This document shows positions 530-62,194 of a DNA stretch of 64,000 nucleotides, piece by piece. This DNA is from a virus (taxonomy: Duplodnaviria > Caudoviricetes), in IMG/VR virus record IMGVR_UViG_2617270876_000003, positions 32,001 to 96,000 of that record, one strand, 5' to 3'. The position numbers were made by a program, and so were the translations under genes. Under the pieces are notes generated by a model, which was not told where the DNA came from, did not search any database, and saw only the letters and a program-made list of their open reading frames with translations. The stretch's first letter is position 1. Every line of letters begins with the position of its first letter.

Positions 530-568
530 TTTTTTATCTTCTCCTTTTTAATCAAACTTGTATTTTAT

Positions 569-886
569 CTATTCTTCTACTGGTTCATATGTCTGCTCGA
601 ATATGTCTGGTTTACATGGATAGAATTCGTTGCCTACGCCTTTTATAATCCAATCGCCTACATCTGCTCTCATAGTTCCTTCGAGAGTAGGAATCTCAAT
701 AAATGTTAATCCTTCTGGTTCGCCATTTGGCTCAGTACCAACTCGAACAAATTGATTATGTGCAGATACAAAATCAATAATCTCAAAGTCGTTGTACTCT
801 TTGTGAATGCCGTATTTACATGGAATTTCTTTAATCACCTTGAACTGCATAGCTTCGATCACTACTGGCTTTTTTCGGAATTTCAT
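569..886 (-). CDS. conserved phage protein of the KFRKKPVVIEA...YPCKPDIF family (copy 1)
   Basis: Motifs KKPVVIEA, IPTLEG, GDWIIKGV, EFYPCKPDIFEQTY; GGAGG SD. Confidence 0.8.
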   Translation of the reverse strand: MKFRKKPVVIEAMQFKVIKEIPCKYGIHKEYNDFEIIDFVSAHNQFVRVGTEPNGEPEGLTFIEIPTLEGTMRADVGDWIIKGVGNEFYPCKPDIFEQTYEPVEE

Positions 887-1004
887 TATAAACCTCCTAT
901 TATTTTATCTTTATAAAACAGTTCTTTCATGAGGAATTTACCGTCAAAAAACCCTTTATTCATGCGGTTTTTAGACATAGCCTTTGCAAAATATGATGTT
1001 TTAC

Positions 1005-1250
1005 TTAATAAACCTCGCAGCCTTGATAATATTTATGTCCTTTCCCTCTATATCTCTGTTTAGAAATAAATGTCTTAACGATAATCAAGTTTTCAGACAC
1101 TTTAAGAAGAACAAGTACACCTTTTTCTGTCATCCATCTAATTTTACCTTCAATGTTTTTGATACAGGATACCTCTTTGATAAGGTATCCCATTCTAACT
1201 CCGCTCTTCTTGATTCTTTCTCTTGCATGTTGAGTGAATTTTATCTTCAT
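1005..1250 (-). CDS. small basic protein, possibly DUF4258/RNase-like fold
   Basis: N-terminal FTQHARERI and C-terminal IIVKTF pattern. Confidence 0.4.
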   Translation of the reverse strand: MKIKFTQHARERIKKSGVRMGYLIKEVSCIKNIEGKIRWMTEKGVLVLLKVSENLIIVKTFISKQRYRGKGHKYYQGCEVY

Positions 1251-1508
1251 AGTTATTACCGTTTATTCTGCTTTCTTGCTCGTGCGTATTTAGTGAGCGT
1301 AGAACCCTTCTTTTCGTGTGTTTTTGCTGGAAGAACATATTGGAATGCAAGTCCTTGTTTTGCTGCAATGCGCTTTGATTCACTTTCTGCTCCAAGTCGA
1401 TCAGTTGGAAGATTATCAATTACAATATTCTTTCCTGTTTCAGTTGTTGCAATCCCGTAAAATGTTGTCATATGTATTATTTCTCCTTTTAAATATATGT
1501 ATTTTTAT

Positions 1509-3149: not shown

Positions 3150-5050
3150 AGTGTAGGCTCACCCTTTCTATACATATTAACCAATGCTTATTTTGAAGTT
3201 TTCAGGCAATGCAATATTATCATAGCTATCCATTGCCTTCATGAACTTATATGTAAGTAACTTGTTCTCTCTTCCTGTGTTCTTGTTAATGATTCGAATA
3301 TTCGCTTTACGTTTCATAAGAATCACTCTCCAAAATAGGATTTAGTTTTCAAGCAAATTGGTAATAATCTCGATGCGTTCAGATTTATTTAACTTGGCCC
3401 ACAACAAAGAAATTTTATTGTAGATTGCATCCAAATCTTTTCCGTCTGTCTCGACTCCAAATTCCTTGAGAATATCAGTAAATGTCATAATTCTCACCTC
3501 CTTGATTTGATGAAAGATAAGTTTTATAAGCAAATGATTAAAAATTCTTTCTCTTTTGCTTTAATAAAAGCATAGTATTTACTTTTATGCTCTAGATTAT
3601 ATAAATTCCTATTATGATCTTCCATATTCCTAAATAATTCAACTACTTCTGGAATTTCAGGATTAGCAGCAAGATCGTCTAAATTATAACTCACAGTAAT
3701 TCCAGACTCTCTTCTTTTTATATTTTCCAATAAAAAGTCATAAGCATCTCTTTTTGGGGGATCTAAAACCTTGTCAGGATATTTTCCTATGTATTGAATT
3801 ATATTGTCTCCTTTCCATTTAATCTTATTTTGTTCAGCGTGCACATCTATCTCAGACTGTTTTTTATATGATTTTCATATGTCCATTTCTTCACTTCGTC
3901 CATAACCTCTCTATTGCTTTTCAAAATATTCTCTACTGTGTGCTCATTAATTAATTCTCCTTCGGGATTTTTGATTAATACCTTCAACAATACCTCGTCG
4001 TTCTTTTTAAAACTCCTTTTAACATCGATTTTCCATCCGTGGTATTTCGCGCTAAGAATATTTGTTCTCATCTTTTATCTCCTCTATATTGTTTTTTTCA
4101 TGAAAGTATGTTTTTATTAAGTCCAATACTCTTGTTCTTCATCCGCATACTCTTCCATCTTGCAATAGCGCTTGTAATGATCCCAGTTGTCTAAGTCTAA
4201 TCCTTGCTGCTTTGCGTGTTCGTAATCTTCATCTGAATATGGTTTATCCATGTTCATTACTTATCTCCTTTGTTTTATGACCATTTAAAATTGCAATGAA
4301 TCATCCTGCCATGTAATTCCCCTTTTACGATTACCACATCTTCAATCTCTAGTTCAGCAAGAACATCTTGTGTTCCAGCATAGCAACGTCCAGAATATTT
4401 TCCTTTTCTATCTTTATGAATATAATAGATGCCATCATCAATTTTAATAAAAACCAATGAGGCTTTTTCTATGACGGTCATTTAATAGGTCTCCTTTTGT
4501 TTATGTATTTTTTCTACTATTCAGAAATTGCATCACAGAATACTTTCCATTCAGTTTTTTTATTTCTCTGAACTTTTTTAAGTCCTTTGTAATGATTACA
4601 AGGAAAAATTCCTCCACCAAACGCACTTTTATAAATACAGGTGCATTCTTCTCTTTTTTCGCCTTTATTTTTGCCAAACATAGTTTCTACTTCTCTGCTT
4701 CCATATTCTCTTTGGATTGGACATTCTGATTTCAAAACATGAACCTCTTCGGTTCCACCGCCTATTGCACAACAGCTCGAAAAAATCTCTTTTTCCTTCA
4801 ATTATATTCATCTCCCTATATTTATTATTTTCATTACAGGTATTCAATGACTTCTATGTATTCATCTATCTCCAAGTAATCGATGCATACTTGGTCTTTA
4901 ATTTCATCAATCACTCTTTCGTTACCAGACCACCAGACCTCATGTTTTCCGTGAGGATAATAATAATCCTTTAACATCTTTACTCTTGCTTTCATCTACA
5001 TCACTATTCCTTTTCTCATAAAACTATTCTTTTATCAGTTGTGCAACGTT

Positions 5051-7646: not shown

Positions 7647-8616
7647 TTAATATAATTTATGTCGTTCTTCTTGCAGTTTGTATTTGTGCAACTCGAAGAA
7701 ATCAACACAATATTTGATTAAAGTTTCTCTTTCTTTATTTAAGCGTATAAACTCTTTTGGATCAAAAGAATGTCTTGCATACCTTTTTTCAATTTCAACT
7801 AATTTATCTCTTTCTTTTGATATTCTATTATCGATTTTTTCAAATAAACCCTTGCTAAATGATAATCGAGACAAATCTTGAACAAAGAAAAAGAGTGACT
7901 TCCACTTTAATTTCCGATTTACGAAATAAAAATCATACACATATTTATATGGGTGTTTCAATACCGCTTCCCATTTATCAATTTTCTCTTCGACTAATTT
8001 TAGTTCTTTTTCTTTATCTTCTCTTTGTCTTTTATTTTCAGCATTAATTTCATCTTCTAATTTTGGCTTATCCCTAATTCCATACCATTGTTTGTAGATA
8101 TTAAACTGGGCAATTTCAATATCACCACAATAAATAGCAAAAATCGATGGGAATGACATTGGCTGTCGAACTTTTACTGTTAGATCATAGGTACATTGCT
8201 TCTGAAAATAAGTGTTCATTAATTCGGCGAGATACTCTTGAAACTTATGCAGTTCTCTCTTAACCGAAGTAAATATTAATGATTTACTACCTTTTAATTC
8301 TTTATCTGCGGTTGTGAACAACAGTACGGGTGTTTTGGTCGCAGCTTCAATAAACCGTCTTTGAGATGTTAACTCTTCAATGGCTTCGTCTATGCTTGAT
8401 TTAAAATTATCAAAACTCAAATTATCATTCCTTTTCATATTTTGATAAAACCTATATTTGATCAATATCTTTCCCAGTTTTAAGCCAATATTTTAAGTCT
8501 AATAAAGCAATTTTTCTTTGGGTATAAATGACCTGATAATAAGGTCGTTTTTCCTTATCGTACTCATAAATTATTTGATCTAACTTCTTGAGTGGTTTTC
8601 TTTTAAATATAAACAT
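7647..8616 (-). pseudogene. hypothetical coiled-coil protein, possibly split by a frameshift near 8455-8495
   Basis: ATG at 8616 with GAGGTGG SD gives a 54-aa ORF stopping at 8452-8454; the 272-aa ORF overlaps in another frame with no good SD. Confidence 0.4.
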
Positions 8617-12656: not shown

Positions 12657-13484
12657 TTAAATTAAAAAGCGTTCAAATACAGGTAATCTCAACATACCAT
12701 TCTTAGTAAATCCTCGATGCTTAACGAGACATCTCATCAAAGGTTGAGTGTACACGTAATCCTTTGTTTCTTCGGTCTTATATTTTTTCATCATTAAATA
12801 TCCAGCTTTTCTTTCCTCTGAATTTGGCCCATACTCCATAGTTCCTACTATTCCATTCCCGTCAGACAACAACCATCCAAATTTATCTTTTCTAAATCCA
12901 GCAAGATAAAACTCGCCCATTTCATAAGCAATGACCTTCTGCCAATACTTACTCTTCTTACCGATTATATATTTTGAATCTGCACGTTTTAATACGATTC
13001 CCTCTAAACCTTGTTGCTTAACTGCATTGAAATACTCTATCCCCTTACCAGTTAAATATCTTGATTTAACAAAGTAATCATTGTCAACAAATGAATCCTC
13101 AAGATACTTTTTACGTTCAGTTAAAGGCAAGTATGTCATATCTCTGTTTTTATACTTGATAATATCGAAAGCAACAATTGTAACTTTATGCTTACTTTTA
13201 CTTGATTGGAATCTTTCCATCGTAGCAGCAAAATCAGCCTTTCCTTCAGCGTTCGGTACAACAAGTTCAGAATCAAGAATTGTTCCACTAGGAATAGGCA
13301 TACTCTCAATAAGTTCGGGAAAATTGGCAGTTATCTCGTTTTCATGTCTCGTATATAGTCTTGGACGATTAATATTCCTAGGAACTAATCTGATTCCATC
13401 CCATTTTAGTTCGGTTATATATTTATCATCATTAAATGGTTTATTGTCCGCTGCGTATTCTAGGAGCATTGGAGATACAAACAT
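12657..13484 (-). CDS. ligB: ATP-dependent DNA ligase
   Basis: ELKWDGIR (KxDG), LDSELV, AFDII, EGIVLK, WQK, LRLPVF. Confidence 0.92.
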   Translation of the reverse strand: MFVSPMLLEYAADNKPFNDDKYITELKWDGIRLVPRNINRPRLYTRHENEITANFPELIESMPIPSGTILDSELVVPNAEGKADFAATMERFQSSKSKHKVTIVAFDIIKYKNRDMTYLPLTERKKYLEDSFVDNDYFVKSRYLTGKGIEYFNAVKQQGLEGIVLKRADSKYIIGKKSKYWQKVIAYEMGEFYLAGFRKDKFGWLLSDGNGIVGTMEYGPNSEERKAGYLMMKKYKTEETKDYVYTQPLMRCLVKHRGFTKNGMLRLPVFERFLI

Positions 13485-13784
13485 TTTTCATCACCCACTA
13501 ATAGTATATCAAAAGTGTATATACTGGTTTAGCGGTAAGTTATGTATGTTAAACCTCGAAGCAATCATATCCAAGGTTATCGATTAAATGTAATTGTGTA
13601 GCAACAATCTTTCCATTATCGTCCTTTAGATTTATCTGAGACTCGTATTTTAAATCAATGTAAATTCCATGTTCATAGGACAGATTCTCTAAAGCTTCAA
13701 TAAAGTCAACAATTTTATCCTTACTCAATATGATTCCTCCTTCGTTTCATGGGTTGATGAAATACCTCTTTCATGAGGTTTTAT

Positions 13785-13831
13785 ATACTACATATAGATA
13801 ATCATTAATAAATATATACTACATGTTGTAT
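13785..13831. promoter_or_regulatory. tandem NrdR-box-like sites
   Basis: ATACTACATATAGATA and ATACTACATGTTGTAT 31 bp apart. Confidence 0.5.
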
Positions 13832-13857
13832 TAAACATCATAAGATTAATTTTAAAT

Positions 13858-15048
13858 TTAAAACTTATCAAATGTACATGGCTTTGCTTCCAAGATTTCT
13901 TTAAGATATGTATGTGCGTTTTCAGCAGTTAATTCTATTCCCATTATGTATTCAATCTCTTCTCTCACATCTTTTGGAATCATGTTGATCAGAGCATTAC
14001 CGTAACCAAGATTGTAAACCATTGCATTATATACTTTTTCATGGTTTATTCTCATCCATTGCATATACCCATATTTCACAGGTATTGGACACATCATACA
14101 GCCTGTTCGCGGAGTAAATATTTTGAATCCTAACTTTTCTAGCATCATTGCTTGTTTTCTATTTACTGTTTGAGTTTGTCTGTCGCCTAAATCGTAATAA
14201 TCAAGTTCATATTCTTCTATTAATGACTTATTAGCAAAAACAGTTTCTTCTGTGTTTTCAGGATACTCCTGGATCAAGTTCATTTTATAGAGATCGTTAA
14301 ATGGTATATTCTCTTGTTCTACATAGTCCCAAATGTCCTTCTCTCTCCACCACAGGATTGGACGACATACATATGACTTCCATTCAGCCACACTATAGAA
14401 GTATTCACCATCTCTAAGTCCGGCCTGAAGTCGCTGACTAGACTCGTCTGCTCTAAGTCCAACGATGAGCAAGTCCCAACTATTTTCCTTTACTGCTCTT
14501 TTCATGGGTTCGTGTTTAAGCGTTCCACAACATCTCTCACTCAGTGGCCTTCCGTTTCTTCGGTCTCCTTTTCTAGCCGTAAAATAATCATCTGTAATGC
14601 CACCGTTGCGGTCAATGATATGTTTCAATGTTCGTTTGGGTTTAGTAATTGTCAGTCTGAGGTTCCATAGATTTGTTAGCATTTTTTGATACTGGCGAAC
14701 CTCTCTAAATTCGTTTGCGGTATCATTCCAAACAATATCGATGTCCGAAGGATCTCTCCCCAGTTCTATTAGTGATTTTCTGGTTAGATAAATATCAATA
14801 ACACTATCTATACCAAATGAGCAAGAAATAACTGGTTTCTTTGCTCTCTGTAGTGCCATTTTTATCAAATCAATTGATAATCTCTCTTTTTCATCTAAGG
14901 ATATTGACTTATGTATGTTGAAATTTGCATATCTTGTTTCTTTATCTGCCCTTGTTTGGTTATACCTTTGCTTAGATTTCCCTTTATCATCTAGGTACTC
15001 TTCTTTTGTTGGGTTAATCTGTAACCCATACTGTTCAGATATATTCAA
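13858..15048 (-). CDS. PAPS-reductase-family (PP-loop) protein
   Basis: SCSFGIDS, WNDT, CCGTLKHEP, GLRADES, RTGCMMCP. Confidence 0.88.
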   Translation of the reverse strand: MNISEQYGLQINPTKEEYLDDKGKSKQRYNQTRADKETRYANFNIHKSISLDEKERLSIDLIKMALQRAKKPVISCSFGIDSVIDIYLTRKSLIELGRDPSDIDIVWNDTANEFREVRQYQKMLTNLWNLRLTITKPKRTLKHIIDRNGGITDDYFTARKGDRRNGRPLSERCCGTLKHEPMKRAVKENSWDLLIVGLRADESSQRLQAGLRDGEYFYSVAEWKSYVCRPILWWREKDIWDYVEQENIPFNDLYKMNLIQEYPENTEETVFANKSLIEEYELDYYDLGDRQTQTVNRKQAMMLEKLGFKIFTPRTGCMMCPIPVKYGYMQWMRINHEKVYNAMVYNLGYGNALINMIPKDVREEIEYIMGIELTAENAHTYLKEILEAKPCTFDKF

Positions 15049-15301
15049 ATACTCACCACCTTATTATTTTTACTAATGTAGAATTTCTTAGTTGTTCTAT
15101 TTACATAAATCAAACTCTTGCCGAATAGACTATCTATCCCCTCAAACAGAATCAGATTCTCTGTTTCGGCCTTTATTTTCTCAGTCTTGAACGTACAATC
15201 ATTTTTAAGAAATGAAAGTATATCGAAAAAATTGAGAATTTGTCCTTCACACATTGTTCGACTGGTTTCAATGACATGGATATTCATATTCGCGCCTCTC
15301 T

Positions 15302-15673
15302 TTAAGTGTTTTTTAATAATACTGGTGCGAACTTTTTCAATTTGCTTAATCCCTTTTCAAAATCATTAAAAAGAAATAATGAGCAGCAAGCAAAGAATGG
15401 ATCGATATAGCTCTTTTCCCATACTGTAATAATTGGGATATTGTTTTCAAATGCAGTTGCACATTCCCATGTAGCGCCAAATCCACTTGGATTATCTTTT
15501 TCCATGTAACAAAACACTAAATCCGACTTTTTAACTTGTTCGATATCTTCAAGTACAAAACGATAAGAGGCTGTTTGTTCTACGGATCTTGGATCAAAAT
15601 ATGTCACCCCCTCAATTTTTGGTAACTTATCTTGCCATGTTCCATACATTCCACCTGAAAGGTAAATTTGCAT
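15302..15673 (-). CDS. nucleoside 2-deoxyribosyltransferase-like protein
   Basis: IYLSGG, FDPR, D...SDLVF, GATWE motifs. Confidence 0.75.
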   Translation of the reverse strand: MQIYLSGGMYGTWQDKLPKIEGVTYFDPRSVEQTASYRFVLEDIEQVKKSDLVFCYMEKDNPSGFGATWECATAFENNIPIITVWEKSYIDPFFACCSLFLFNDFEKGLSKLKKFAPVLLKNT

Positions 15674-15722
15674 TAGATGTCTCCGTTCTTGTTAGTATTT
15701 CTTGATAAAATGAGGGTTTTAC

Positions 15723-16616
15723 TTAAACATTTTTCTTATTCTTCAACCACTCTTGGACATACCAAAGCATTCCGCAGCCGCCTCCGATATCGTCCTGTCC
15801 TGCTGGATCAAACATTCTAACGTTGTATCCATCTTCCAAAAACTTATTCATGAACTCTTTAATTACGTTGTGATTTCGGTATCCGGCATCTTTCATGGTT
15901 TCGTCAGCACTACAGACAACACTAAAAGTTAAGTTGAAGAACATGGGGCTAAACAAATCTTTAAGCCTGTTTAAATGATCATCTGTTACATTGGTTCCAT
16001 CTACACAATAGTTGAGGTAAACCTTTCTTCCAGTTTCTTTGCTCCAAGTGATTCCAGCGTCACGGATCTTTCGCAATGGCATCTTATTCTTAAATGGAAT
16101 CAACGTATTTCTTTCTTCTTCGAATGCTTTATGTATAGAAAACTGCAAACCTACTTTATCAATTTGCTTGGACAATTCAATCATCTTGCTAAATGTTTTG
16201 TCGTTATTAATTCCAACTGTAGATATCAAAAGTTGTGCGTTCGGATAAAGAACATTTAGAAGTTTAATTGCTGATTCTACATTATCCCAATTAAGCATTG
16301 GTTCACCCATAGACATGAACATGATTTGAAACTTATCAGACGACAACACATCGTTAGCAATCTTCATGTCTTCGATCATGTGTGTAACCTGATAAATGAT
16401 TTCATCTGGTTTTAAATTTCTAATAAACTTCTTGCCTGTGCCACAAAATTTACATCCTACAGGACATCCAGATTGTACCGAGCAACAGATAACGGTTCGA
16501 TTTTTGAACGATTCATATTTGTATAGAACAGCTTCGGTTACAACTTCTTCTGTTGTGAAAACATACTTCCATACATTTTGTTCTGAACTATCAAATCTTT
16601 TAACTTCATTAAACAA
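15723..16616 (-). CDS. RlmN/Cfr-like radical SAM methyltransferase lacking the N-terminal domain
   Basis: CCSVQSGCPVGCKFC, FMSMGEPMLN, ISTVG, SIH, GQDDIGGGCGML. Confidence 0.85.
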   Translation of the reverse strand: MFNEVKRFDSSEQNVWKYVFTTEEVVTEAVLYKYESFKNRTVICCSVQSGCPVGCKFCGTGKKFIRNLKPDEIIYQVTHMIEDMKIANDVLSSDKFQIMFMSMGEPMLNWDNVESAIKLLNVLYPNAQLLISTVGINNDKTFSKMIELSKQIDKVGLQFSIHKAFEEERNTLIPFKNKMPLRKIRDAGITWSKETGRKVYLNYCVDGTNVTDDHLNRLKDLFSPMFFNLTFSVVCSADETMKDAGYRNHNVIKEFMNKFLEDGYNVRMFDPAGQDDIGGGCGMLWYVQEWLKNKKNV

Positions 16617-16831
16617 TTAATCATCTCCTATGTATTTTTATTATTTAAATCAATACCACAAACATGACAGTAATTCAGTTCGATATCGGTATATTCAAAA
16701 CTATCATTACTATAATCCCACGAATTTCCCTCTACTCTTAAATACCATTTCTTATTTTGATAATCAAACCAAATATTTTCATCACAGTTATGTTCCACTC
16801 TTTATCCTCCCTTCAACATGAAACTGAACTT

Positions 16832-18040
16832 TTATTCCAACTCAAATGGACATTTGTAGTCTTCTAATTCTTCATTCTCCCACTTTTCATATTCCGCTTT
16901 AGGCACTTCTCTTGTCACAATGCAACTTTTTGCCAGAACTTTATCTGAATTCTTAATGTAAAAATCTGTGTATGGAATTGTTGCTTCAATTAACACAGCA
17001 TTTCTGCTATTTGAATAACTGGAACTTGAAATTTCTAACTTCTCATTGAAATACAGGTAGTCATCTCTCTTGGGAGTGGCCTTCTGATCTATCTTGTATT
17101 CAAATTCCTTGTCCCAGAAACTAAAATATTTATCTCCCCTTTTTTCAACGAACTTGTAGAATTTCCGATTCGCGATAAACTCCTCTCCGTTGTATCCAAC
17201 TTTATTCTTTGGCGTGTTATCAATTTGCTTTAGAGTCCCATCTTTTTTTATTCTATATGTATAGTCATTAATTGTTACTACTTTAGTTGGTTCCTTGCTT
17301 ATGTATTCGATAATCTCTTCAACATCATTAAATTTAACTTTTTCTGGTTCCTTGAAATAATCATCATTTATTGAAAGATCAGCTATCTTATCAATGATTA
17401 AATCAAGAGAGAATTCTTCACCTTCTTTCAGTTTGATTAATTTATCGTAGTTGATTCCATACATTCCACCCAAATGCTCTTTTAAATGCTCAATTGTCTC
17501 GATCTTCATGCCCATGCACTTTAGTGCAATCCGCAAAAATTCCGGCTTGGAAATTGTGTATCCTTTTTCTTTATATTTATGTACTCTAAGCAAAGAAACG
17601 ACTGGGTATGCAGTGTTTTTGTTGAACTTGAGAATCCGTTGTGAATTATGTTTTAGGAAGTCTTCGTGTAAAACGAACTCCTCTGAGAAAAAGTCGAATG
17701 CACCCATGCATACCGTATAATCAAAACTGTCAAATATCTCTTCCGCATTCTCAAAATATCTGAAATGAATCATTTGTACTTCTTTATCATCGATTCTTAC
17801 AAGGAGCGCTTTTGTGGTCAGAGCATTGATCCAGTCATTCCCATCCTCATATACTTCTTCAATAAATTCATTGAGCAGTTTTTCGCTACGAAAATAAACA
17901 TCAACATCTTTAATTTCTTTATTATTGAATAGACTAGTAATTAATCCCCCAGCTATAAATACCCTATATTCCTTAAATACATTGACTAAATGTTGCCCCA
18001 AGTAATTGTACAGTTTATTCTTTTCAAATTGGAAGTTCAT
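16832..18040 (-). CDS. nucleotidyltransferase-like protein (CCA/poly(A) polymerase head-like)
   Basis: FIAGG..SL....IKDVDVYF, FDYTVC, RVHKYKEKGY. Confidence 0.65.
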   Translation of the reverse strand: MNFQFEKNKLYNYLGQHLVNVFKEYRVFIAGGLITSLFNNKEIKDVDVYFRSEKLLNEFIEEVYEDGNDWINALTTKALLVRIDDKEVQMIHFRYFENAEEIFDSFDYTVCMGAFDFFSEEFVLHEDFLKHNSQRILKFNKNTAYPVVSLLRVHKYKEKGYTISKPEFLRIALKCMGMKIETIEHLKEHLGGMYGINYDKLIKLKEGEEFSLDLIIDKIADLSINDDYFKEPEKVKFNDVEEIIEYISKEPTKVVTINDYTYRIKKDGTLKQIDNTPKNKVGYNGEEFIANRKFYKFVEKRGDKYFSFWDKEFEYKIDQKATPKRDDYLYFNEKLEISSSSYSNSRNAVLIEATIPYTDFYIKNSDKVLAKSCIVTREVPKAEYEKWENEELEDYKCPFELE

Positions 18041-20192: not shown

Positions 20193-20299
20193 GAAATCTC
20201 TCCAGTCCCGATGTTGGTTTATTTTACCTCTTAACATCATAATACCTTATCTTGTTTAATACAGCATGAGGTAAAATAATCCTGTTGGAGAAAGATTTC
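20193..20299. repeat. long nested inverted repeat
   Basis: TTATTTTACCTC 20219-30 / GAGGTAAAATAA 20268-79 plus outer stem 20193-204 / 20286-99. Confidence 0.7.
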
Positions 20300-29396: not shown

Positions 29397-29409
29397 AAAC
29401 CCCTTGTTA

Positions 29410-45629: not shown

Positions 45630-46456
45630 ACTCAATTTCTCCCCTTCATGGGGAGTTTTTATTTTGTCTTTCTTAATTCATCCACCAATTGCTGCACCTT
45701 CAGGCCATATTCCTTTCGACTATCCAGTGATGCAGCAATGATGTTGTTTACATCCCATTTATTCTGTTTAATATCGTTCAGGATTTTTTCAATTGGCGTT
45801 TCTGCTATGTATTTTATAGTGTTAAGTCTGTTCATGACAATCATATTCCAAATTCACAATCTCAAATTCTATATTTAGTGCTTTTAGTACATTCATCAGT
45901 AATCCTTTGTTCACTTCACTATATTCACTTACCAATTTATCATTAACAAAAATTCTTGTGCCATATTCTCCACTAAAAGGGTCTCCCTTTGTATAATCCC
46001 AATCCTGAAAAAATATCTTATCCATTACTTCTTCTCCTTTTCTCATAAAATAACAGTTTGATCAAATTAACACTTCATGTATCATAAGTCTCTTATCGTA
46101 TTGTTTCTTTGTTAATTCATACAATACATAGTAATTTGGTGTGTCTATTACATATCCGGTAATTAAATAATATCTAGGAACATTTCCATCTGGAACAATG
46201 ACGTGTCTGTTTATTTCAGAAAATAGTGGTGAACTGATTAACTTTCTTGACGGAATTCCCTTAATTTCCTCTTTAGTTAGGTGATTAATCAGCTTCATAT
46301 TGATCCATTTTTCTTTCAACATCGTCTTTAATATCTTTCAATTTATCTCTAAACTCAATCATGTCACTGTACGTCAAAACATCGTCTTCATAATCCATAA
46401 GAAGTTCTTTGAAAATATCTAAATTAACAGACATAATTATCGCTCCTTGATCAATT

Positions 46457-48273: not shown

Positions 48274-48317
48274 TCAAATCACGTTAAAATCTGTCTTTTA
48301 TTCAAACCTATGTATTA

Positions 48318-50507: not shown

Positions 50508-51443
50508 TCAAAATCCAAATTTATTGAATCCTTCTTTTATAACTTCATTATCTTCCTCGAATGGTGAACCAGTTATCGTTCGTGGCTCCAAATCTTCTTT
50601 TGAGTATTTTTCAGACTCTAAGACACTCCCACCTGTAACAACTAATTCTTTTATTGATGTGCCAACAACAACTCGCTGTCCTTCATCATTTGTTGTTATT
50701 GGCACATAATGCCGTATGTTTCCATACACCTTGATTAACGAACCAAAGTGAATTTTATTGCTCAAATAATCAATTAATTCAGTGTTATCGCCTGATTTAT
50801 AAACGATAAAGTTGTAAGGAATTGCTCTAAAGCCACTCGACTCTTTAATAACTATTTTTCCAAATAAACTATATTTATTTTTATCTATTTGCTCAAAACC
50901 CACAAAAATAACTTCCTGGCTAAAATAAGCCGATATAAAATATTTTTTATCGTCAAAGTTGATTGGATCGTAAGAATAAATACTTTTGATAGTAAACTTT
51001 TCTTGTATTTCTCCATTATAATCTTCAATCTTCGTTGTACCTCTGATCAGTATGGTGTCTCCATCATTTAAATTACTGTTTAGATAGGTGATTGCGTCAT
51101 AACTCATCTGCACTAAATCAGATGGTTCATCATTGATATTTATCTTTATCATATTCGGAATCTTATATTTCTTAGTAATGAATTTATTTAATTCGTTCCA
51201 ATCAACCATTATGTATTTATTATCTTCTCTATTACCATATGCTTCATATACTTTAACCCTTGATGTTTTCATACCCATCAATTCCACATATACAAAGGCG
51301 TTATGGCTTACCTTTATTCCGAATTGTAGTCTTTTCCATTGGCAATCTTCCTTCTCTCCTTCTGTTACGGATTTCGTACTGGACAATCCAGTTACAATTC
51401 CTATTGCTTCGAAGTAACCGTATGTCGGCTGAAGTTCCATCAA
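50508..51443 (-). CDS. OB-fold SSB-like paralog (YorE-like)
   Basis: Similar layout to the neighbour (GDTILIRG, GSLIKVYGNI, ELVVTGG). Confidence 0.6.
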   Translation of the reverse strand: MMELQPTYGYFEAIGIVTGLSSTKSVTEGEKEDCQWKRLQFGIKVSHNAFVYVELMGMKTSRVKVYEAYGNREDNKYIMVDWNELNKFITKKYKIPNMIKININDEPSDLVQMSYDAITYLNSNLNDGDTILIRGTTKIEDYNGEIQEKFTIKSIYSYDPINFDDKKYFISAYFSQEVIFVGFEQIDKNKYSLFGKIVIKESSGFRAIPYNFIVYKSGDNTELIDYLSNKIHFGSLIKVYGNIRHYVPITTNDEGQRVVVGTSIKELVVTGGSVLESEKYSKEDLEPRTITGSPFEEDNEVIKEGFNKFGF

Positions 51444-51925
51444 CTCACTACCTTAATAAATTTATCTAAAGTCTTCCGCAGGAACCCAAGCTTCATACCC
51501 ATTATCGAATTCAACTCTCAAGTCCTGCTCGTAGCAGCCATTAAACAAATCTGATTTCTCGTCGATTACAACCCCACAATCACCATACTCGATTTCACCC
51601 TCACTATCATAACTATGTGAGAACAATTCTACTCTGTCTCCTACTTCATAAAATAATCCCTTCAATGTACTACCTCCTAAATATTAATCGTTTATGTAAT
51701 CGTGCAACTTCACACGTTATTTTAGTACTTCCTCGCTTCAATATCTTTATAAAAGTATTCTTTCAATTAATTATTATTTATTTTTATCTTATAAAGTAAT
51801 TCTATATATTAACGCCTCTAGAAAGCGATACATATTATCTTTAATCTCAGAATAACATACAATATATTAATTATCAATACTTATTTTTACTTTATAAGTT
51901 TAAGCCGAACTCTTTAGTCCGGCCA

Positions 51926-53023: not shown

Positions 53024-53149
53024 TTATTTCATATCTTCCGGTACATCTTCTCCGTGGAGGATGGTCCAGCTTGCTGTTGCGGTTTGAACTACTGCAAAAA
53101 CAGTCAAAACTGTTCCAAGAATACTCATAATTTTATACTTACTCTTCAT
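53024..53149 (-). CDS. agrD: AgrD-like cyclic lactone autoinducer precursor, 41 aa
   Basis: Not in ORF track. MKSKYKIMSILGTVLTVFAVVQTATASWTILHGEDVPEDMK; AAGGAGGTG SD; overlaps agrB stop; leader, S-x4 core and acidic Pro tail. Confidence 0.9.
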   Translation of the reverse strand: MKSKYKIMSILGTVLTVFAVVQTATASWTILHGEDVPEDMK

Positions 53150-53690
53150 TAACTATCACCTCCTTTGCTGGAATATGGATCAAAGTCAAAGCCTGCATAA
53201 ACATTGCCAATGTTACAGTTGGATTCTTTAGTATTAATGAAAAAATAATCAATATTAAAGAAATTATCTTAAAAATATGGAAATTTTCTTTTCTGATTCT
53301 TGTACTATTGTTTATTTTAGAAGGAGAAAATATTAAACATAATAAAAAACTAATAATATTAAAAACAATGGAAAGTGAATCATTTACATATACCGAAATC
53401 TCCGTTATTGACAAGATTAAAAGTGTTGACGCAACAATACAAATATCAGCATTTTTCAAGTGGAATCCACCTGAAAATTGACGCAAGATTGAAAATGACA
53501 ATAAACATATTAAACATTTTATGAGAGTATCAGAATATAGACCATATCCAAATATTAATAACAATGGAAGCAGATTAGTAATAATTAACTTGATCGAATA
53601 TCTAGTTTTTTGATATGATGGCATTTCATCTTTGTAATTATTAGTTAGCCATCGAGCAATAAATTCAGAAAAATAATTAATCAATATCAT
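53139..53690 (-). CDS. agrB: AgrB accessory gene regulator B peptidase
   Basis: FSILRQFSGGFHL...C (catalytic His/Cys motif), FSPS, multi-pass membrane. Confidence 0.92.
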   Translation of the reverse strand: MILINYFSEFIARWLTNNYKDEMPSYQKTRYSIKLIITNLLPLLLIFGYGLYSDTLIKCLICLLSFSILRQFSGGFHLKNADICIVASTLLILSITEISVYVNDSLSIVFNIISFLLCLIFSPSKINNSTRIRKENFHIFKIISLILIIFSLILKNPTVTLAMFMQALTLIHIPAKEVIVNEE

Positions 53691-54420: not shown

Positions 54421-54454
54421 AAAAAAAAAGAAACGGGCTATTCTCCCGTTTCTT
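54421..54454 (-). terminator. intrinsic terminator after the repressor gene
   Basis: AAGAAACGGG / CCCGTTTCTT 10-bp stem followed by a U-run on the minus strand. Confidence 0.8.
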
Positions 54455-55442
54455 CGTCACCAATTAGTGGGTATAAAGATTCAATAGTTTCAATGTTTAG
54501 GAAGTCTGTTGTTAAGCGATTTACTCCTTTATAATCAATGTCAAACTTTCTACATACTTTCATTAGCTCTGTGCGTTCAAACTTGCCACTCTCACGATAA
54601 AGCTCATTTGCGTACTTCAACATACCCGATTTTCTGATATTAATTGGTGTTAAGTATGGGTAATCGAACCATTTGGCTATTTTTTTTATTCGTCTTGAGA
54701 CCAAGTTCGGTGGAGCATTATCTATATATTTTACATTTAATGCAACTGGTCTAAATACATAAGGAGACTCAATTAACTCTGCATCTCTAGCTTTAATAAA
54801 AACACTTTCGTTTCCGTTTGACTTATAATACACGGTTTGATGTGCAGCACTATATAGTAAGTTCATTAATTTTTGACTTATTTCTATTTCCCTTGTTTCC
54901 AGTGGCCCTTCTGCTGGTTTATTGCGAAGCGTAATATAACCATTTCCCCGGTCTACATCTTTCTCTAAGATATTTAATATTTCTGAGTATGCTCTTCCCA
55001 TTATCCCCTCGAATAAACACTGTATCAATGCAGAGTCTTGGGGATTGACAATGCGCCCAATAAACGAATTAATTTCTTCATCCGAAAACAAATATTTATT
55101 ACTTGTATCCACATAACTTTGTATTAATTCATCAGTTAGAGCTGCATCTAAAGGATTTATATTGTCAGCCCTAAGGTCTTCTTTAATTGCCCATCTTATA
55201 TATCTTCTAATTGTTAGTATCTGTGATTTACTTGACAAAAAAGTTGTTGGTGAAAGTAATTTCATTAACTGCCCAATTTCATACAAATTAAAATTAAATA
55301 AATCTTTGTTTAATTGCTCTTCTAAATAAGAGGCTCTTTTCAATACCCTAGAATAAGTATTGTATGTAGATTCCTCTAATCCCTTTAGATATCGATCTTT
55401 CTGGGGTTTATTAAAAAATTTATCTTCATATATTTTATTCAT
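54438..55442 (-). CDS. tyrosine-recombinase-fold repressor, YopR/MrpR-like
   Basis: EEQLNKDLFNF, YIRWAI, NPQD.ALI..LFEG..G...SEILN, INIRKSGM with degenerate catalytic motifs; ATGA-coupled to yopQ-like gene. Confidence 0.8.
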   Translation of the reverse strand: MNKIYEDKFFNKPQKDRYLKGLEESTYNTYSRVLKRASYLEEQLNKDLFNFNLYEIGQLMKLLSPTTFLSSKSQILTIRRYIRWAIKEDLRADNINPLDAALTDELIQSYVDTSNKYLFSDEEINSFIGRIVNPQDSALIQCLFEGIMGRAYSEILNILEKDVDRGNGYITLRNKPAEGPLETREIEISQKLMNLLYSAAHQTVYYKSNGNESVFIKARDAELIESPYVFRPVALNVKYIDNAPPNLVSRRIKKIAKWFDYPYLTPINIRKSGMLKYANELYRESGKFERTELMKVCRKFDIDYKGVNRLTTDFLNIETIESLYPLIGDEETGE

Positions 55443-56764
55443 TTTTTCTCCCCGCTTTCAACAAGAGCGTTGAAATATTTTAATACCTTTTTTCTTAAGG
55501 CTGATGAATTAATACCTCTTTTAGTATCACTAAGCAATCCATTTAGCTCTTCATCTTTTAAATTTAAGTTTTCAACATAGTTCTTTAATTCTTTTAATTC
55601 AATATTGTTGTCTTGAAAATACTTGGCAATTACAGTATATCCAATAAACATCAAAGGATGATTAATATTTGTGTCTTTGTATTTTTGAGGGCTTAATAAA
55701 AACTGGTCAACAAAACTTCCCGTCAGATAATCATAAAATTTAATCAGATATGTCGCCACTTCTCTTGCTTCAAGATTACTTTTTGGCTTAAATACATTTT
55801 CAATAGCATAAGACATTATATCAAATGTTGTAAGTTGCCCTGCAATTTCTGAAATTTTTGGCGATGATGCAATTTTTCCTTTTAGGTCTGACTTTTGTTG
55901 AAGTTCCTGTACAACAATGTCTTCTTTTCCTTCTGAAATCAATTCTTTTCTTCTTTGTTCCGGCACAACATTTATCGTATTTATTTGACCAAAAAATCTT
56001 TTTGCTGTTTCATCATTATAAACCCTAATCGACAAACCCATCATTTGAGGAAGTTCTGAATTAATTGATATAGCTCTAATCCCACCTTGAAGTCGATGAA
56101 ATCCATCAAGAATCGAAATTATCACATTTTCATTTATTATAAGTGTTTTCGCTTCCTCATTATATTCTACTGGATTATCACTATCTGAATATATATTTAA
56201 TGTTATGGTATCGTCCAAATAATTTTCTTTTAACATCTCTCTGGAAATGTCTTCAACACTTGATGGATTAATATCTGGTACCTGTACAATCCCATCTCTT
56301 CCTGCTATATATTTTGCGCTTCGTTGAGTTTCGAATTTATAAATAATTAATTGTGAATGAAACATTTGCACTAAATAAGACATCTCAACCTTGGTCAAGT
56401 AACTATTCTGTGTCACTCTTATTACATCATTAAATGCAATTGGCAAATATATTCGGTTTTCTTTTGTGTAAAGTGATCTAGCGTGTTTTTTAGATGTTTC
56501 AATCTCATTCTCAGTAAACCACTCCTTAGGATCTACATCCTTATAACCTGTAATTTGGTAAATTCCATCTGTTAATAAACAAAGAACAGGAGACTCAATT
56601 AAAGATACTTGTTGTATACCTTTAACGATATCTTCAAATGTTCCCAGTGGAATTCCATACTCCAAAAGATAACTACTTATATTGAATATTTTCTTTCTCG
56701 ATTTTTTTACTTCCCTTATTCTTTCTTGAATATGCAATTCAAGTTCTTCCCGATCTTTTAACAT
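55439..56764 (-). CDS. DGQHR/DndB (ParB-like) domain protein, YopQ-like
   Basis: ETQR, ILDGFHR, FFGQIN; directly upstream of yopR-like gene. Confidence 0.78.
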   Translation of the reverse strand: MLKDREELELHIQERIREVKKSRKKIFNISSYLLEYGIPLGTFEDIVKGIQQVSLIESPVLCLLTDGIYQITGYKDVDPKEWFTENEIETSKKHARSLYTKENRIYLPIAFNDVIRVTQNSYLTKVEMSYLVQMFHSQLIIYKFETQRSAKYIAGRDGIVQVPDINPSSVEDISREMLKENYLDDTITLNIYSDSDNPVEYNEEAKTLIINENVIISILDGFHRLQGGIRAISINSELPQMMGLSIRVYNDETAKRFFGQINTINVVPEQRRKELISEGKEDIVVQELQQKSDLKGKIASSPKISEIAGQLTTFDIMSYAIENVFKPKSNLEAREVATYLIKFYDYLTGSFVDQFLLSPQKYKDTNINHPLMFIGYTVIAKYFQDNNIELKELKNYVENLNLKDEELNGLLSDTKRGINSSALRKKVLKYFNALVESGEKK

Positions 56765-58101: not shown

Positions 58102-58260
58102 ATTACTATAATTACAATAAATTGCAAGACTTTTTCGTGCTCCAGATTCTAGTTGTTAAAAGACAAAAAGACCCCACATATTATTTTCAATATGTATAGG
58201 ATCTTTAATCTAATAATTTATTGCTATGCAGTTGTTGTGAAATGCCAATTTTATATATTT

Positions 58261-59616: not shown

Positions 59617-59742
59617 AAAAAAGTCCTCCTAAACAAAATAAGAATATATGTTTGTAAGAATATTTTACCATAACTAACTCAATAGTACAAACCAATTACC
59701 CATTTTTTGTGATTCGAAATACTCATAAAAACGATATTTCAA

Positions 59743-60270
59743 TCAAAATTCTACTCGTTTTCTTGCTACAAAATGTTCTACTTTATTAATTTTATCTAGA
59801 GTTATTCTACCTGTAACTCCCTGTAACCACTCGCCTGTTCCACTCCAGTTTGAATTAATATTTCTATTCAAATCAAATATTCTTTCCCAACTTTCTTCTT
59901 TGGTTATGCTTAGTTCTCCTCTGTAAAACGCTTCGTATTCATCTTCACTATCTGCGTTAAACGAATCGTTTAATACCATATGCCAGTTCTCAAAATCCGA
60001 AATAAGAACATCTTTTTCGTCTAATTCAACAGTTAACCTTACACATTTGGTCCCACTCTCAAAATGACTTGTAGACCTCATATCTGGCTTTTTGAGCCAC
60101 AACCACACTGGGTACTCTCCATTGTATTCAGGAAGTCTCAAAGCCATCTGCTGCATCATCCATTTATATTCTTCTGGATATAGAGCATACTCTTCTGAAC
60201 CTTCAATATACCCCAATTTTTTGAATTCATTCCAAACTTCTTCGGTTTTAAGTGTCCAATATTTTGTCAT
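59743..60270 (-). CDS. DUF3841-family protein
   Basis: YKWMMQQM, YPVWLW, KPDMR, VLISDF..WH.VLN, SWERIFD. Confidence 0.8.
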   Translation of the reverse strand: MTKYWTLKTEEVWNEFKKLGYIEGSEEYALYPEEYKWMMQQMALRLPEYNGEYPVWLWLKKPDMRSTSHFESGTKCVRLTVELDEKDVLISDFENWHMVLNDSFNADSEDEYEAFYRGELSITKEESWERIFDLNRNINSNWSGTGEWLQGVTGRITLDKINKVEHFVARKRVEF

Positions 60271-61165
60271 CTATGCATATTCCTTCGAAATGTTGTTTTT
60301 ATTATAATCCCAGTTTTTCAAATCTTTCTTCCGCCTCAGTTTTAGGTTTAATTGGTACACCTCTAGAAGTATCCCATCCAAGCGTAAACACCGTACTTTG
60401 ATGTCTCTCAACGGGATGCCCGTAGTCAGTTGTGTGAATATTTAAAAGTACCCACCCTGCTTATAGGAAAAGATTAATTTTTTCTGTATTATTGTCTTGA
60501 TAAATCTCTATATACTTTTCTAAATTTATACGAACAATTTCTTTGTCATACATTATTATCATTCCTCTCTATCAAATCATCGCTTTATGATTTTTCTTTG
60601 TTCTTTTTTAACATCATAGCCAATGCTCTGTTCCGATACTTTTTTCTATAACAATTGTATGACCATCAATAAAAGTCAATTTTCCTGTCATTAGAACAAA
60701 ATTATCAACTTTTTCAGGATTGACTCTATAGCGTCCTAAGTCCACATAATTTTGATTCTTCGCAATTTCCTCCATGTCATAATCCTTAAGTGGATAAAAA
60801 GTTTCTCCTTTGGCTGTATGGATTATTACGTCTCTATTGATTTCTGGTTTGTCGTTCATGGCTCCAATCTTCCTTTCTTTTAAAACCGTTATTTCAAAGA
60901 TATTTTATCGATCTTAGCCTTACACTCCAGCCATGTTTCAAGCAGCCAATCCTCTACCTCTCGACCTCTATATGCCTTAATATCCTTCTCGCCACTCTTT
61001 GAAAATATAATTGTTCCGTCACCAACAAAGGTGGAAGCCCATCCATTATAGGGAAAGTTCTTGATTACATGATAATTAATTTCTTCATTGGTGATTAAAT
61101 CTCGCTTCGCAATAATATCATTGAAATCACTCATCTTAATATCAACTCCTTATAAAATAGTCCTT

Positions 61166-62194
61166 TTACAAATTCAATTGAAGCAGTGTGTTCAAAACGA
61201 GTTTATCAGGTCTCAGATAATTCTTATAGTATTCATGATTACTTTTCTTGATTTCCATTAATAGTTCTTTATCTTTGTAAAGTTTCCTCACTTGTTCTAC
61301 ACACTCTAAAGGGTTGTTAAACTCTAGATAATGCTGATTATTATAAAAACTTGGAACATAATAATATAACTTCTCTGCAACAATTGCTTTGCTGGCAGCA
61401 ACATATTCAGCAAGCTTCCAGCCGTTAGATTTATGAAGTCCGATAGTTGATATGCATATATCGGAATCTCTAACTAGTCTTATATAATTTTCTTTTTTTG
61501 TAGCTGAATCATCTAATACACAATCTGAATATAGTTCTAAGGCTTCTTTTCGTGTTGAAAATCCACCAGTAAAGTCTTCACCAAACTCCTTGCGTAGCAT
61601 CCGAATACATGTGGCTCTTGTATCATTAATATGTCTGAATTCGTCTTGTTCTAAGCCTGGAGCTTCATCGATTCCCCACGTTCTAGCCATAAATAGAATC
61701 CTTGGCTTATTAATTGGCTCCTTTGGATCATGTTCGAATCTATCTACATAAAACTGTTGATGATAATTCTTGCCCATTGCCTCTTTTATGCACCAATTCA
61801 TACGTTCGCTAAAATTTTTATATGTTTTATCCATAATATTGTTCTTGGTTGTTACAAAATAATTTAATCCAAGTGGACGAACTTTCTTAGCAAAGTCATA
61901 ATGTGAGTGTTCATTTTCATTAAAACTTCTTTTAAAAACAAAATTGGAACGCTCAATAACTTTTTGAACTCTATCTAAATCAAAATGATAACCGTCTGCC
62001 ATATCATAAGCAATTCTTATGCTCCCATTAACTACAACTTCTATAATAGACAAAATACAAGAGTCAGATATCTCAACATCGAGATTTATTAACCTCTGAT
62101 CAGCAAGCATTTTGTAACCTGTAATAATTTGATGTAAGTGACCTTCTGTTCGTCTAGGATGTGGAGTGTATAATCTGCAACTGTACTTTGTCAT
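61166..62194 (-). CDS. GT-B fold glycosyltransferase-like protein
   Basis: YI.LVRDSDICIST.G....GWKLAEYVAASKAIV C-terminal GT pattern. Confidence 0.7.
   Translation of the reverse strand: MTKYSCRLYTPHPRRTEGHLHQIITGYKMLADQRLINLDVEISDSCILSIIEVVVNGSIRIAYDMADGYHFDLDRVQKVIERSNFVFKRSFNENEHSHYDFAKKVRPLGLNYFVTTKNNIMDKTYKNFSERMNWCIKEAMGKNYHQQFYVDRFEHDPKEPINKPRILFMARTWGIDEAPGLEQDEFRHINDTRATCIRMLRKEFGEDFTGGFSTRKEALELYSDCVLDDSATKKENYIRLVRDSDICISTIGLHKSNGWKLAEYVAASKAIVAEKLYYYVPSFYNNQHYLEFNNPLECVEQVRKLYKDKELLMEIKKSNHEYYKNYLRPDKLVLNTLLQLNL

Follow-up and report, generated by a model that had tools for sequence, protein, structure and literature searches.

What function could a short palindrome have that recurs at gene junction after gene junction in a large prophage? 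The question is raised by a stretch of 64,000 nucleotides (nt) from a Caudoviricetes virus (IMG/VR record IMGVR_UViG_2617270876_000003, positions 32,001 to 96,000), which we call the window and in which the 18-bp pattern ATRAAA-N6-TTTYAT, two conserved 6-bp arms around a 6-bp spacer, is found many times. An original prediction had described more than 30 such palindromes and had proposed an integron-like system of gene acquisition or shuffling on tyrosine-recombinase geometry, with a stoperator array of a YopR-like protein as the alternative.

An 18-bp palindrome at the gene junctions of an SPbeta-like prophage

The window (G000:C1:4264714-4328713) lies inside an island of about 197 kb with 33% guanine plus cytosine (GC), roughly positions 4,232,000-4,429,000 of G000, in a genome of 5.87 Mb with 50% GC. 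The island encodes homologues of the SPbeta proteins YorL, YorK, YorJ, YorG, YorF, YoqV, YosS, YopP, YonO, YonN, and YonR and carries a large serine recombinase at one end; judged from this gene content, it is an SPbeta-like prophage. At the DNA level, no match of the window to phage records was found. Gene models were made with a home-made scorer of open reading frames (ORFs), codon use, and Shine-Dalgarno sequences, and all junction counts rest on these models, by which the island has about 270 minus-strand genes on its early side, including the whole window, and about 69 plus-strand genes on its late side.

Exact palindromes occurred 18 times in the window, compared to 0.40 times in 100 dinucleotide shuffles (standard deviation 0.67, largest 3), and with up to one mismatch, there were 42 sites, compared to 7.74 in the shuffles (standard deviation 2.67, largest 16). 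The predicted number of more than 30 palindromes thus held, and a motif scan against shuffled sequence places the motif far above chance; about eight of the 42 sites may be chance matches. The spacing of the arms is strict, with 18 exact pairs in the window and 39 in the island at a spacing of 6, and only 0-2 and 0-4, respectively, at every other spacing from 0 to 15. Swapped or direct arrangements of the arms reached at most 4 in the window and 7 in the island, without any peak. The whole genome has 51 exact sites, of which 39 are in the island, six in a second low-GC island, and six elsewhere. With up to one mismatch, the island has 106 sites, 90 in its early and 16 in its late part, most of them in intergenic gaps.

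The same 18-mer, also at a spacing of 6 only, was clustered in five other large phages: G344 (15 exact sites) and G289 (10), which are prophages from other genera of the same family, and G401 (27), G402 (30), and G403 (27, all three compared to 0-1 for a reversed control pattern), which are complete IMG/VR phages of 164-175 kb with terminal repeats. Together with the G000 island, these are the six motif-bearing phages of our comparisons. Only about one quarter of the genes are common to G000 and related phages (89 and 87 reciprocal best hits of 338, median identity 42-44%). In DNA comparisons of G000 with the other five, the identity was 64-98% in patches with means of about 70%, and as this DNA is too diverged, joints could not be mapped between G000 and the other phages.

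With regard to placement, the sites almost always lie between a stop codon and the next ribosome-binding site. Among the exact sites of the six phages, 132 of 148 are intergenic, the median distance from a site to the next start codon is 25 nt, and the flanking sequence holds little information. The observation that a Shine-Dalgarno sequence follows the other arm was borne out, as the site is constantly positioned just 5' of it.

The sites of the window were recorded without strand, based on the motif scan (exact or one mismatch) and the gene model. At ten of them, the upstream gene ends with a stop codon that is formed by the TRA of one arm. These are the exact palindromes at 3510-3527 (minus-strand gene, stop at 3524), 16818-16835 (16832), 26226-26243 (26240), 33394-33411 (33408), 41932-41949 (41946), and 43332-43349 (43346), and the one-mismatch palindromes at 20553-20570 (20567), 22789-22806 (22803), 44284-44301 (44298), and 61152-61169 (61166). 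Eight of these stops had been predicted, and those at 22803 and 33408 are additional. Two further predicted positions fared differently: only a two-mismatch site is present at 43089, and at 40461 there is indeed a one-mismatch site (40447-40464), but no ORF of at least 45 amino acids (aa) ends there. The other exact palindromes are at 913-930 (intergenic), 4100-4117, 5018-5035, 13757-13774, 18398-18415, 21783-21800, 23252-23269, 24949-24966, 29907-29924, 34583-34600, 37999-38016, and 39475-39492. Further palindromes with one mismatch are at 551-568 (ATCAAA..TTTTAT, intergenic), 8445-8462 (partly coding by the gene model), 15705-15722, 19767-19784, 22523-22540, 26733-26750, 27062-27079, 29524-29541, 36310-36327, 42626-42643, 46045-46062, 48284-48301, 51749-51766, 58237-58254, and 59725-59742. 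Five of the 42 sites are wholly coding by the gene model, namely 34583, which turns intergenic if an alternative gene start is used, and the one-mismatch matches 26284-26301, 38966-38983, 50933-50950, and 60669-60686, of which 26284, 50933, and 60669 are probably chance.

Two blocks had been described as free of sites, and no site with up to one mismatch was found in the yopQR-agr block, between the sites at 51749 and 58237, or in a block with YorJ-like and ligase-like genes, between those at 8445 and 13757. The proposed bracketing of foreign-looking cargo was correct for the kinase gene, with the sites 34583 downstream and 36310 upstream of it, and for the gene at 58261 (sites 58237 and 59725), but only one side of the gene at 19089 carries a site (19767).

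Spacers do not repeat within a genome but are conserved between phages

For the analysis of the spacers, we used the 456 sites with up to one mismatch of the six phages, oriented by the early-gene strand, and 300 column shuffles. Within one genome, not a single pair of sites shared its spacer, whereas 8.9 such pairs were expected (shuffle maximum 18). Between genomes, in contrast, 330 pairs had identical spacers, compared to 42 expected (shuffle maximum 58). In 258 of these 330 pairs, both 40-nt flanks had an identity below 24/40, which is the level of random sequence. The spacers are hence unique within a genome and conserved site by site between phages. The spacer had been taken as freely varying; it does differ from site to site, yet each site keeps its own spacer in different phages.

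The first shared-spacer pairs listed stood in the same order along G000 and G402, and in two four-phage alignments, site and spacer were the sole invariant block amid sequence that could not be aligned. In the window, the site at 18398 has its 40 nt on the sense-upstream side kept together with the site in G402 (37/40) and G403 (27/40) while the downstream flank differs, the site at 23252 and its upstream flank are kept in G402 and G403 (37-39/40) next to an unrelated downstream flank, and at 3510, G403 shares the spacer and the downstream flank. The slot between the consecutive spacers GGCTGC and ACTGAA illustrates what can happen between two sites. In G000 it measures 0.5 kb and has two small ORFs, in G402 1.36 kb with four ORFs, and in G403 0.98 kb with four ORFs. 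Forced alignments of these ORFs gave 11-29% identity, and of the two best ORF pairs, one had no match at E <= 100 and the other one of E 0.03 over 26 residues. As spacers and sites stay constant while the enclosed genes differ, the sites surpass these genes in age and stability.

The sites also avoid junctions between genes of conserved adjacency. In early-region junctions of 12-150 nt, a site was present at 0/8, 0/12, 1/12, 3/34, 0/23, 2/26, 2/26, and 3/27 junctions of gene pairs with conserved adjacency, in comparisons that share genomes and are therefore not independent, whereas a site was found at 24-41% of the junctions with one shared gene and at 30-50% of those without a shared gene (Fisher p 0.058 to 6e-5). 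An earlier, looser version of this analysis had given 0/14 and 0/15 for the conserved-adjacency junctions.

Tyrosine recombinases such as lambda Int, Cre, Flp, and XerCD require identical overlap regions in the two partner sites. We therefore tentatively favor, at somewhat less than an even chance, the reading that the palindromes are heterospecific tyrosine-recombinase core sites that address the exchange of modules, since this idea is the only one at hand that predicts spacers that are both unique and conserved. The 6-bp arms would bind a recombinase, for which a YopP/SroD-like enzyme is the candidate, and the 6-bp spacer would be the overlap region. As every junction has a different spacer, the genome would not delete or invert itself, and exchange with a related phage would be possible at the junction with the same spacer. 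The sites would thus serve as an ordered scaffold, with early accessory genes swapped between one addressed joint and the next.

The symmetry points to double-stranded DNA recognition

The constant position immediately 5' of the Shine-Dalgarno sequence would also suit an mRNA element, i.e., a hairpin or protein site by the ribosome-binding site that controls translation or processing of polycistronic early transcripts. When six sites were folded, the arm hairpin was the best (minimum-energy) fold in two of them (-2.9 and -4.4 kcal/mol), but not in the other four. At the degenerate positions 3 and 16, the combination A/C on the sense strand, which does not pair, was the most common one with 33 of 109 cases, followed by G/T (30), A/T (29), and G/C (17). 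The preferences at the spacer edges are mirrored, as position 7 is rarely A (52/456) and position 12 is rarely T (35/456), and no Rfam family matched the window. We consider an mRNA element very unlikely. As the degeneracy is reverse-complement symmetric, spacer edges included, the symmetry of the palindrome is, from its base composition, that of double-stranded DNA recognition and not of RNA structure.

Sigma-A promoters or terminators at the sites do not account for the pattern, as neither signal was enriched: in positions 13001-33000 of the window, promoter-like sequences numbered 72 compared to 90 expected and terminator-like sequences 6 compared to 6.7 expected.

The palindrome marks the SPbeta-like phage lineage

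To cover known phages, the 16-bp core TRAAA-N6-TTTYA was scanned with the reversed pattern as control. The core was enriched in SPbeta (36 sites, control 3), phi3T (34, control 5), and seven of nine further relatives, namely pW2 (30, control 6), Tsamsa (29, control 5), Perkons (52, control 6), Geobacillus E3 (42, control 10), KKP_3916 (14, control 1), phi6255 (39, control 6), and c-st (37, control 11). Enrichment was weak in the Staphylococcus SPbeta-like phage (20, control 10) and absent in Sundance (7, control 5). The five unrelated phages SPP1 (0, control 2), SPO1 (1, control 0), phi105 (0, control 0), phage K (5, control 5), and phage G (44, control 32) showed no enrichment. The palindrome is a mark of the SPbeta-like phage lineage.

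In SPbeta itself, 29 of the 36 core sites lie within the early region at 69-133 kb, and in 50 kb of this region, 17 sites were found at a spacing of 6 and 0-5 at other spacings. According to the annotation of the SPbeta record, the TAA of an arm is the stop codon of yoqG, yoqS, yoqY, yorT, mtbP, yorZ, yosC, yosF, and yosR. We did not find a description of the palindrome in the literature searched, which did not include the original SPbeta genome paper or the papers' supplements.

The second low-GC island of the host genome (G000:C1:3257000-3310500, about 53 kb, 31-36% GC) carries its six exact palindromes at a spacing of 6 only. It encodes a paralogue of the YopP-like protein (45% identity), and an MrpR homologue was not found in it. 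The two islands have tail genes and YopP-like recombinase, AgrB-like, MazF-like, and helix-turn-helix (HTH) proteins in common.

A host factor as the binder was rejected, as SPP1, SPO1, and phi105 are B. subtilis phages without the motif and only six of the 51 exact sites in the host genome lie outside the two islands. The best explanation is that a protein of two-fold symmetry, encoded by the phage lineage, recognizes the palindromes as sites in double-stranded DNA.

Regulators as candidate binders

The most obvious DNA-binding candidate is the MrpR/YopR(SroF)-like protein of the window (334 aa, 54438-55442, minus strand; Pfam MrpR_N_CB 6e-23 and MrpR_C_cat 2.4e-14; PDB 9rd5 and 8a0a), which is at most 31% identical to any phage record. 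It has a tyrosine-recombinase fold without three of the seven catalytic positions compared (the first Arg, the His, and the nucleophilic Tyr, which is replaced by Phe), and because of these three losses, it cannot be the recombinase for the palindromes. As master repressor, it could nevertheless use the palindrome as the equivalent of SPBRE, the dispersed repeated element that is bound by SPbeta MrpR (PMC10516654). An MrpR homologue was found in every motif-bearing phage, but the phages had been selected via that homologue. In SPbeta, one palindrome (SPBc2 76171-76186) is placed upstream of the SPBRE copy in the aimR promoter region, at a distance of about 10 nt; read from the sequence, published PaimR reporter and electrophoretic mobility shift assay fragments may hold both elements.

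MrpR appears, however, to have its own box. The oriented sequence TATAAAGTAAAAATAAAT, with its reference copy at 27382-27399 on the minus strand, is distinct from the palindrome family and has one-mismatch copies at 7209, 7550, 12109, 18085, 37139, 47774, 51879, and 62312, all on the minus strand. With up to three mismatches, 24 matches were found in the window, compared to 2.8 in shuffles, and 21 of the 24 were on the sense strand. It is often followed within 4-6 nt by a TTGAYA hexamer that resembles a -35 element, the copy at 62312 precedes the operon leading to mrpR, and one copy of the long box (51776-51793) is 10 nt away from the palindrome at 51749. TATAAAGTAAAAATAAAT has both A-tracts of the phi3T SroF box as given in a preprint (bioRxiv 10.1101/2025.11.27.690993). 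Based on these sequence features, it is probably the MrpR/SroF box of the phage in the window. The long boxes of the other phages are AGTATTATTTTATCATAATTAA in G289, ACAAAGATAATAC in G344, and ACATATATTTATTCATTAA in G401-G403, and SPBRE of SPbeta differs again from these. The same preprint describes such a change of the long box between SPbeta and phi3T and the binding of SroF, as a monomer, to an asymmetric box of 26 bp (bioRxiv 10.1101/2025.11.27.690993). The palindrome, in contrast, is the same in phages whose MrpR proteins are only 42-54% identical. Moreover, chromatin affinity precipitation sequencing (ChAP-seq) of SPbeta MrpR gave ten peaks, at genes earlier found with SPBRE, in the main text of the study, whose supplements may list weaker peaks (PMC10516654), and this compares to 36 palindromes in SPbeta. 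The second island has sites without having MrpR. MrpR was rejected as binder for its own phage-specific oriented box, the invariance of the palindrome, the ten peaks, and the monomeric asymmetric binding; that the palindrome is its site is highly improbable, and the idea of a stoperator array of the YopR-like protein was not supported by these data. The closest MrpR homologues (G348 56%, G205 48%, and G316 46%) are encoded in small low-GC islets without motif clusters and were uninformative.

Other candidates were also rejected. The Cro/C1-type HTH protein (77 aa, 62744-62977, plus strand; Pfam HTH_26 1.5e-13) is kept in all six phages. Ahead of its gene, a palindrome TGAAACG-N5-CGTTTCA (62669-62687, no strand assigned) lies immediately upstream of a TATAAT and, from its position, is likely the protein's own operator. 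As the arms of this 7-N5-7 palindrome change with the phage (TGAAACG, TGGAACG, or TGTTACC), the protein was dismissed as the binder of the invariant palindrome. Promoters of YonO do not match either, since YonO starts at one late-region site upstream of yonK according to the respective paper (PMC5467207), and the inverted repeat of PamR is different (PMC5730154).

The main alternative, which we nonetheless regard as doubtful, is an array of operators or roadblocks in which a conserved dimeric phage regulator other than MrpR, e.g., the 'second repressor' SroE/YopQ-like protein or a small protein, sits on about 100 junctions and silences or times the long early operons. Mycobacteriophage stoperators and the KorB operators of plasmid RK2 are analogues of such an array. 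The placement between stop codon and ribosome-binding site, a median of 25 nt ahead of the start codon, the long co-directional gene arrays with few promoter-like or terminator-like signals, and the strong bias to the early part of the island would suit such a function. The symmetric arrangement of two arms around N6 also suits HTH dimers, of which the 434 operator is an example. SPBRE is similarly placed, as it immediately precedes the ribosome-binding sites of yopM, yopV, and yonX. A second repressor, SroE, with a DNA target that is not known, is reported for SPbeta-like phages in the preprint (bioRxiv 10.1101/2025.11.27.690993). The YopQ(SroE)-like protein of the window (441 aa, 55439-56764, minus strand) belongs to the DndB/ParB clan (Pfam DndB 24.4 bits, below the cut-off of 29.1), its gene overlaps the start of the mrpR-like gene, and it is 26% identical to SPbeta YopQ (E 4e-35). 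As binder, however, YopQ/SroE is weakened by the fact that no YopQ-like protein was found by tblastn in the motif-bearing phages pW2, Tsamsa, and KKP_3916; none was found in Sundance either. The conserved HTH protein and MrpR each have a DNA element of their own. Above all, an operator array predicts neither site-specific spacers that are kept across diverged phages and are unique within a genome nor the avoidance of conserved adjacent gene pairs.

The palindrome could also have another function at the DNA level, for instance in DNA structure or bending, in replication, or as the target of another conserved protein. For the binder of the palindrome there are still only candidates, an A-tract and a T-tract are kept in helical phase, and an HU-like YonN-like protein is conserved with the other core proteins (48-69% identity among the six phages, 56% to SPbeta). 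We regard such a function as unlikely, and no specific prediction that would account for unique, conserved spacers comes with it.

The YopP-like recombinase and the case for addressed recombination sites

If the palindromes are heterospecific recombination sites, a recombinase is needed, and the best candidate for the cognate enzyme, judged from its sequence and distribution, is a YopP-like Xer-type recombinase of 355 aa (G000 4367213-4368280) that is encoded at the border of early and late genes, about 38 kb outside the window. The protein is homologous to SPbeta YopP, its best solved relatives are XerD, XerA, and an XerC-like protein, and in the alignment with XerD, Arg, Lys, His-x-x-Arg, His, and Tyr are in place. 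This catalytic hexad R-K-H-R-H-Y is kept in the YopP-like proteins of all six motif-bearing phages. YopP-like proteins (E <= 1e-8) were found in 66 of 50,697 phage records, nearly all of the SPbeta-like group, with Bacillus (59), Geobacillus (2), Listeria (2), Psychrobacillus (1), Alicyclobacillus (1), and Lactococcus (1) as the genera. Among the 11 core-scanned relatives, seven have both the motif and a YopP-like match (SPbeta, phi3T, pW2, Tsamsa, Perkons, E3, and KKP_3916), and two lack both or have a weak motif (Sundance and the Staphylococcus SPbeta-like phage). In the literature, yopP is listed as a core gene of SPbeta-like phages with no function assigned (PMC10516654, PMC8612738). The island has three genes whose products have a tyrosine-recombinase fold, as Tyroviruses do: the MrpR-like, the YopP-like, and one in the structural module (4392292).

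We infer that the YopP-like enzyme may bind the sites, cleave at the spacer borders, and thereby exchange DNA at them. Extended to SPbeta-like phages in general, including SPbeta and phi3T, the sites would be a scaffold on which YopP/SroD or a gp19-like recombinase swaps modules in register, with intragenomic deletion prevented by the fact that each address is used only once per genome. This wider reading is possible, although we would sooner bet against it than on it. In its core, the original proposal of site-specific shuffling on tyrosine-recombinase geometry gains some support from the spacer pattern, the avoidance of conserved adjacencies, and the complete and conserved Xer-type recombinase; its analogy to integrons is not.

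As the G401-G403 genomes share blocks of 82-98% identity, their homology breaks could be compared to the positions of the sites. Ends of homology blocks were about ten times nearer to sites than random positions were. They piled up at the outer edges of the sites (positions 18-19 from upstream and -1 to 2 from downstream), and one 1.2-kb insertion in G403 is flanked by two sites at a place where the other phage shows a 17-bp overlap.

A number of observations speak against recombination at the sites, and they start with these breaks. Compared to site-free junctions, junctions with a site had block ends in 33/66 versus 90/231, 30/61 versus 95/228, and 35/69 versus 92/210 cases, an excess that was not significant (odds ratio 1.3-1.6, p 0.12-0.33). 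Among 30 simple insertions in G401-G403, 25 had no site at either end, four had one, and one had both, and among 280 replacements, 183 had no site, 88 had one, and nine had both. The expectation that breakpoints of gene gain and loss fall at the sites was thus not borne out. Homologous partners that match upstream only and others that match downstream only were found together at just one of 101 sites. The pile-up at the site edges is weak evidence because, by arithmetic, BLAST can extend across a spacer that is not identical and reach the second arm in about half of the cases, and extension through the conserved arms can therefore yield it. With regard to the enzyme, the second catalytic Arg is replaced by Lys in SPbeta YopP, and the catalytic Lys by Gln according to the alignment, while SPbeta retains the sites. 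In phi6255 and c-st (two of the 11 relatives), the motif is present, but no YopP-like match reached E <= 1e-8. Plasmid-type maintenance has been proposed for the homologous gp19 module of Tyroviruses (PMC9703825). Conserved arms of 6 bp are short for a tyrosine recombinase. Finally, being able to recombine with relatives is selected for only weakly, and therefore the identity of spacers amid decaying flanks is not easily explained by such selection.

Comparison with known systems

The likeness to tyrosine-recombinase core sites (XerCD/dif, lambda) and to heterospecific lox/FRT sites consists in inverted arms around a 6-bp center, within the class of 6-8 bp, and in an element-encoded Xer-type enzyme with the full hexad, for which we infer the cognate role. 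As in heterospecific lox/FRT, the spacers would act as addresses of the partners, being unique within and shared between genomes. In contrast to these systems, where there is one site, each genome carries about 100 natural sites, placed at gene junctions, and conservation within an arm is limited to 6 bp. To our knowledge, natural arrays of heterospecific sites have not been described.

Integron attC sites are likewise palindromic elements at the boundaries of small accessory genes, with stop codon overlap and variable cargo. They are, however, imperfect palindromes of 57-141 bp, and IntI, which lies beside attI and Pc, recombines them in the form of folded single strands. The sites described here have 18 bp, with 6-bp arms and a 6-bp spacer, paired R''-L''/L'-R' core sites were not encountered, and simple insertions are mostly not flanked by sites, as is evident from the 25 of 30 without any, so that the proposed analogy to integrons had to be abandoned. 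An integron platform was not found: neither of the PF00589 matches of the island (G000 4367387 and 4392292) falls inside the window or heads an array.

SPBRE, the MrpR/SroF box, is also dispersed in the early regions of the same phage family, often just upstream of the ribosome-binding site. In contrast to the long, oriented, phage-specific, and monomer-bound boxes of the SPBRE type, the palindrome is symmetric and lineage-wide, and both this prophage and SPbeta have such a box in addition to it. The stoperators of cluster A mycobacteriophages, which Brown and colleagues in 1997 reportedly found by the tens in the short gaps between genes of long operons, often across stop codons, are similar in their many copies in short within-operon gaps, some of them on stop codons. 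They are asymmetric sites of 13-14 bp, oriented with transcription and bound by the immunity repressor, without a variable site-specific center, whereas the palindrome is symmetric in its arms, its R/Y degeneracy, and its spacer edges. PeSL elements of T4-type phages consist of an early promoter and a stem-loop and act through homology; according to Arbiol and colleagues in 2010, they flank small accessory genes and were proposed to mediate shuffling. The likeness lies in repeats that flank small accessory genes in plastic early regions. The difference is that neither promoter enrichment nor a stable hairpin was found here and that the identity between palindrome sites is limited to 12 arm bases.

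Neighboring genes and repeats

Some side aspects of the prophage are worth reporting. With 33% GC over about 197 kb in a host of 50% GC, the difference in composition is unusually large for a resident prophage. In the early region, the kinase-type gene of the window (34692-36236, minus strand) encodes a Ser/Thr protein kinase of eukaryotic type (Pkinase 3.4e-44), and there is a gene for a Y-family DNA polymerase (28149-29390, minus strand, IMS 1.6e-44). An AgrB-like gene (53139-53690, minus strand, Pfam AgrB 7.9e-22) and an ORF of 41 aa (53024-53149, minus strand) lie directly downstream of mrpR, and both are kept in related phages. From their arrangement, they may represent a phage Agr-type peptide signal at the position of the arbitrium system of SPbeta. 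The arbitrium circuit of SPbeta and phi3T works via host MazEF, and the window has a MazF/PemK-like toxin gene (63022-63444, minus strand, 1.9e-25) that adjoins the divergent Cro/C1 HTH gene. Just past the window end (64854-65216 in window coordinates), a protein of 120 aa with a cREC_REC receiver domain (5e-30) is encoded. Of the early proteins, it shows the highest conservation between G000 and G344/G289 (77-78% identity), and the set of proteins common to all of G401-G403 did not include it. The 9-mer ATACATATG has 34 copies in the island stretch, about 31 of them co-oriented with the local genes and mostly within coding sequence (in the window, for example, at 1469, 7172, 37351, 41597, 41901, 42521, and 44327), and related 10-mers are also among the most common ones in all five other phages.

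Implications for the SPbeta family and phage mosaicism

Irrespective of the mechanism, a second dispersed motif exists in the SPbeta family beside SPBRE, its central 6 bp are conserved for each site while the surrounding genes change, and its presence in SPbeta and phi3T makes it genetically testable in Bacillus subtilis. Natural heterospecific sites could also serve as orthogonal recombination targets. The usual account of phage mosaicism is random illegitimate recombination, followed by selection for joints at gene boundaries. If the reading as heterospecific core sites is true, a core recombinase of the SPbeta family would have a function, and the addressed joints would let phages exchange modules, and thus become mosaics, by another, programmed route.

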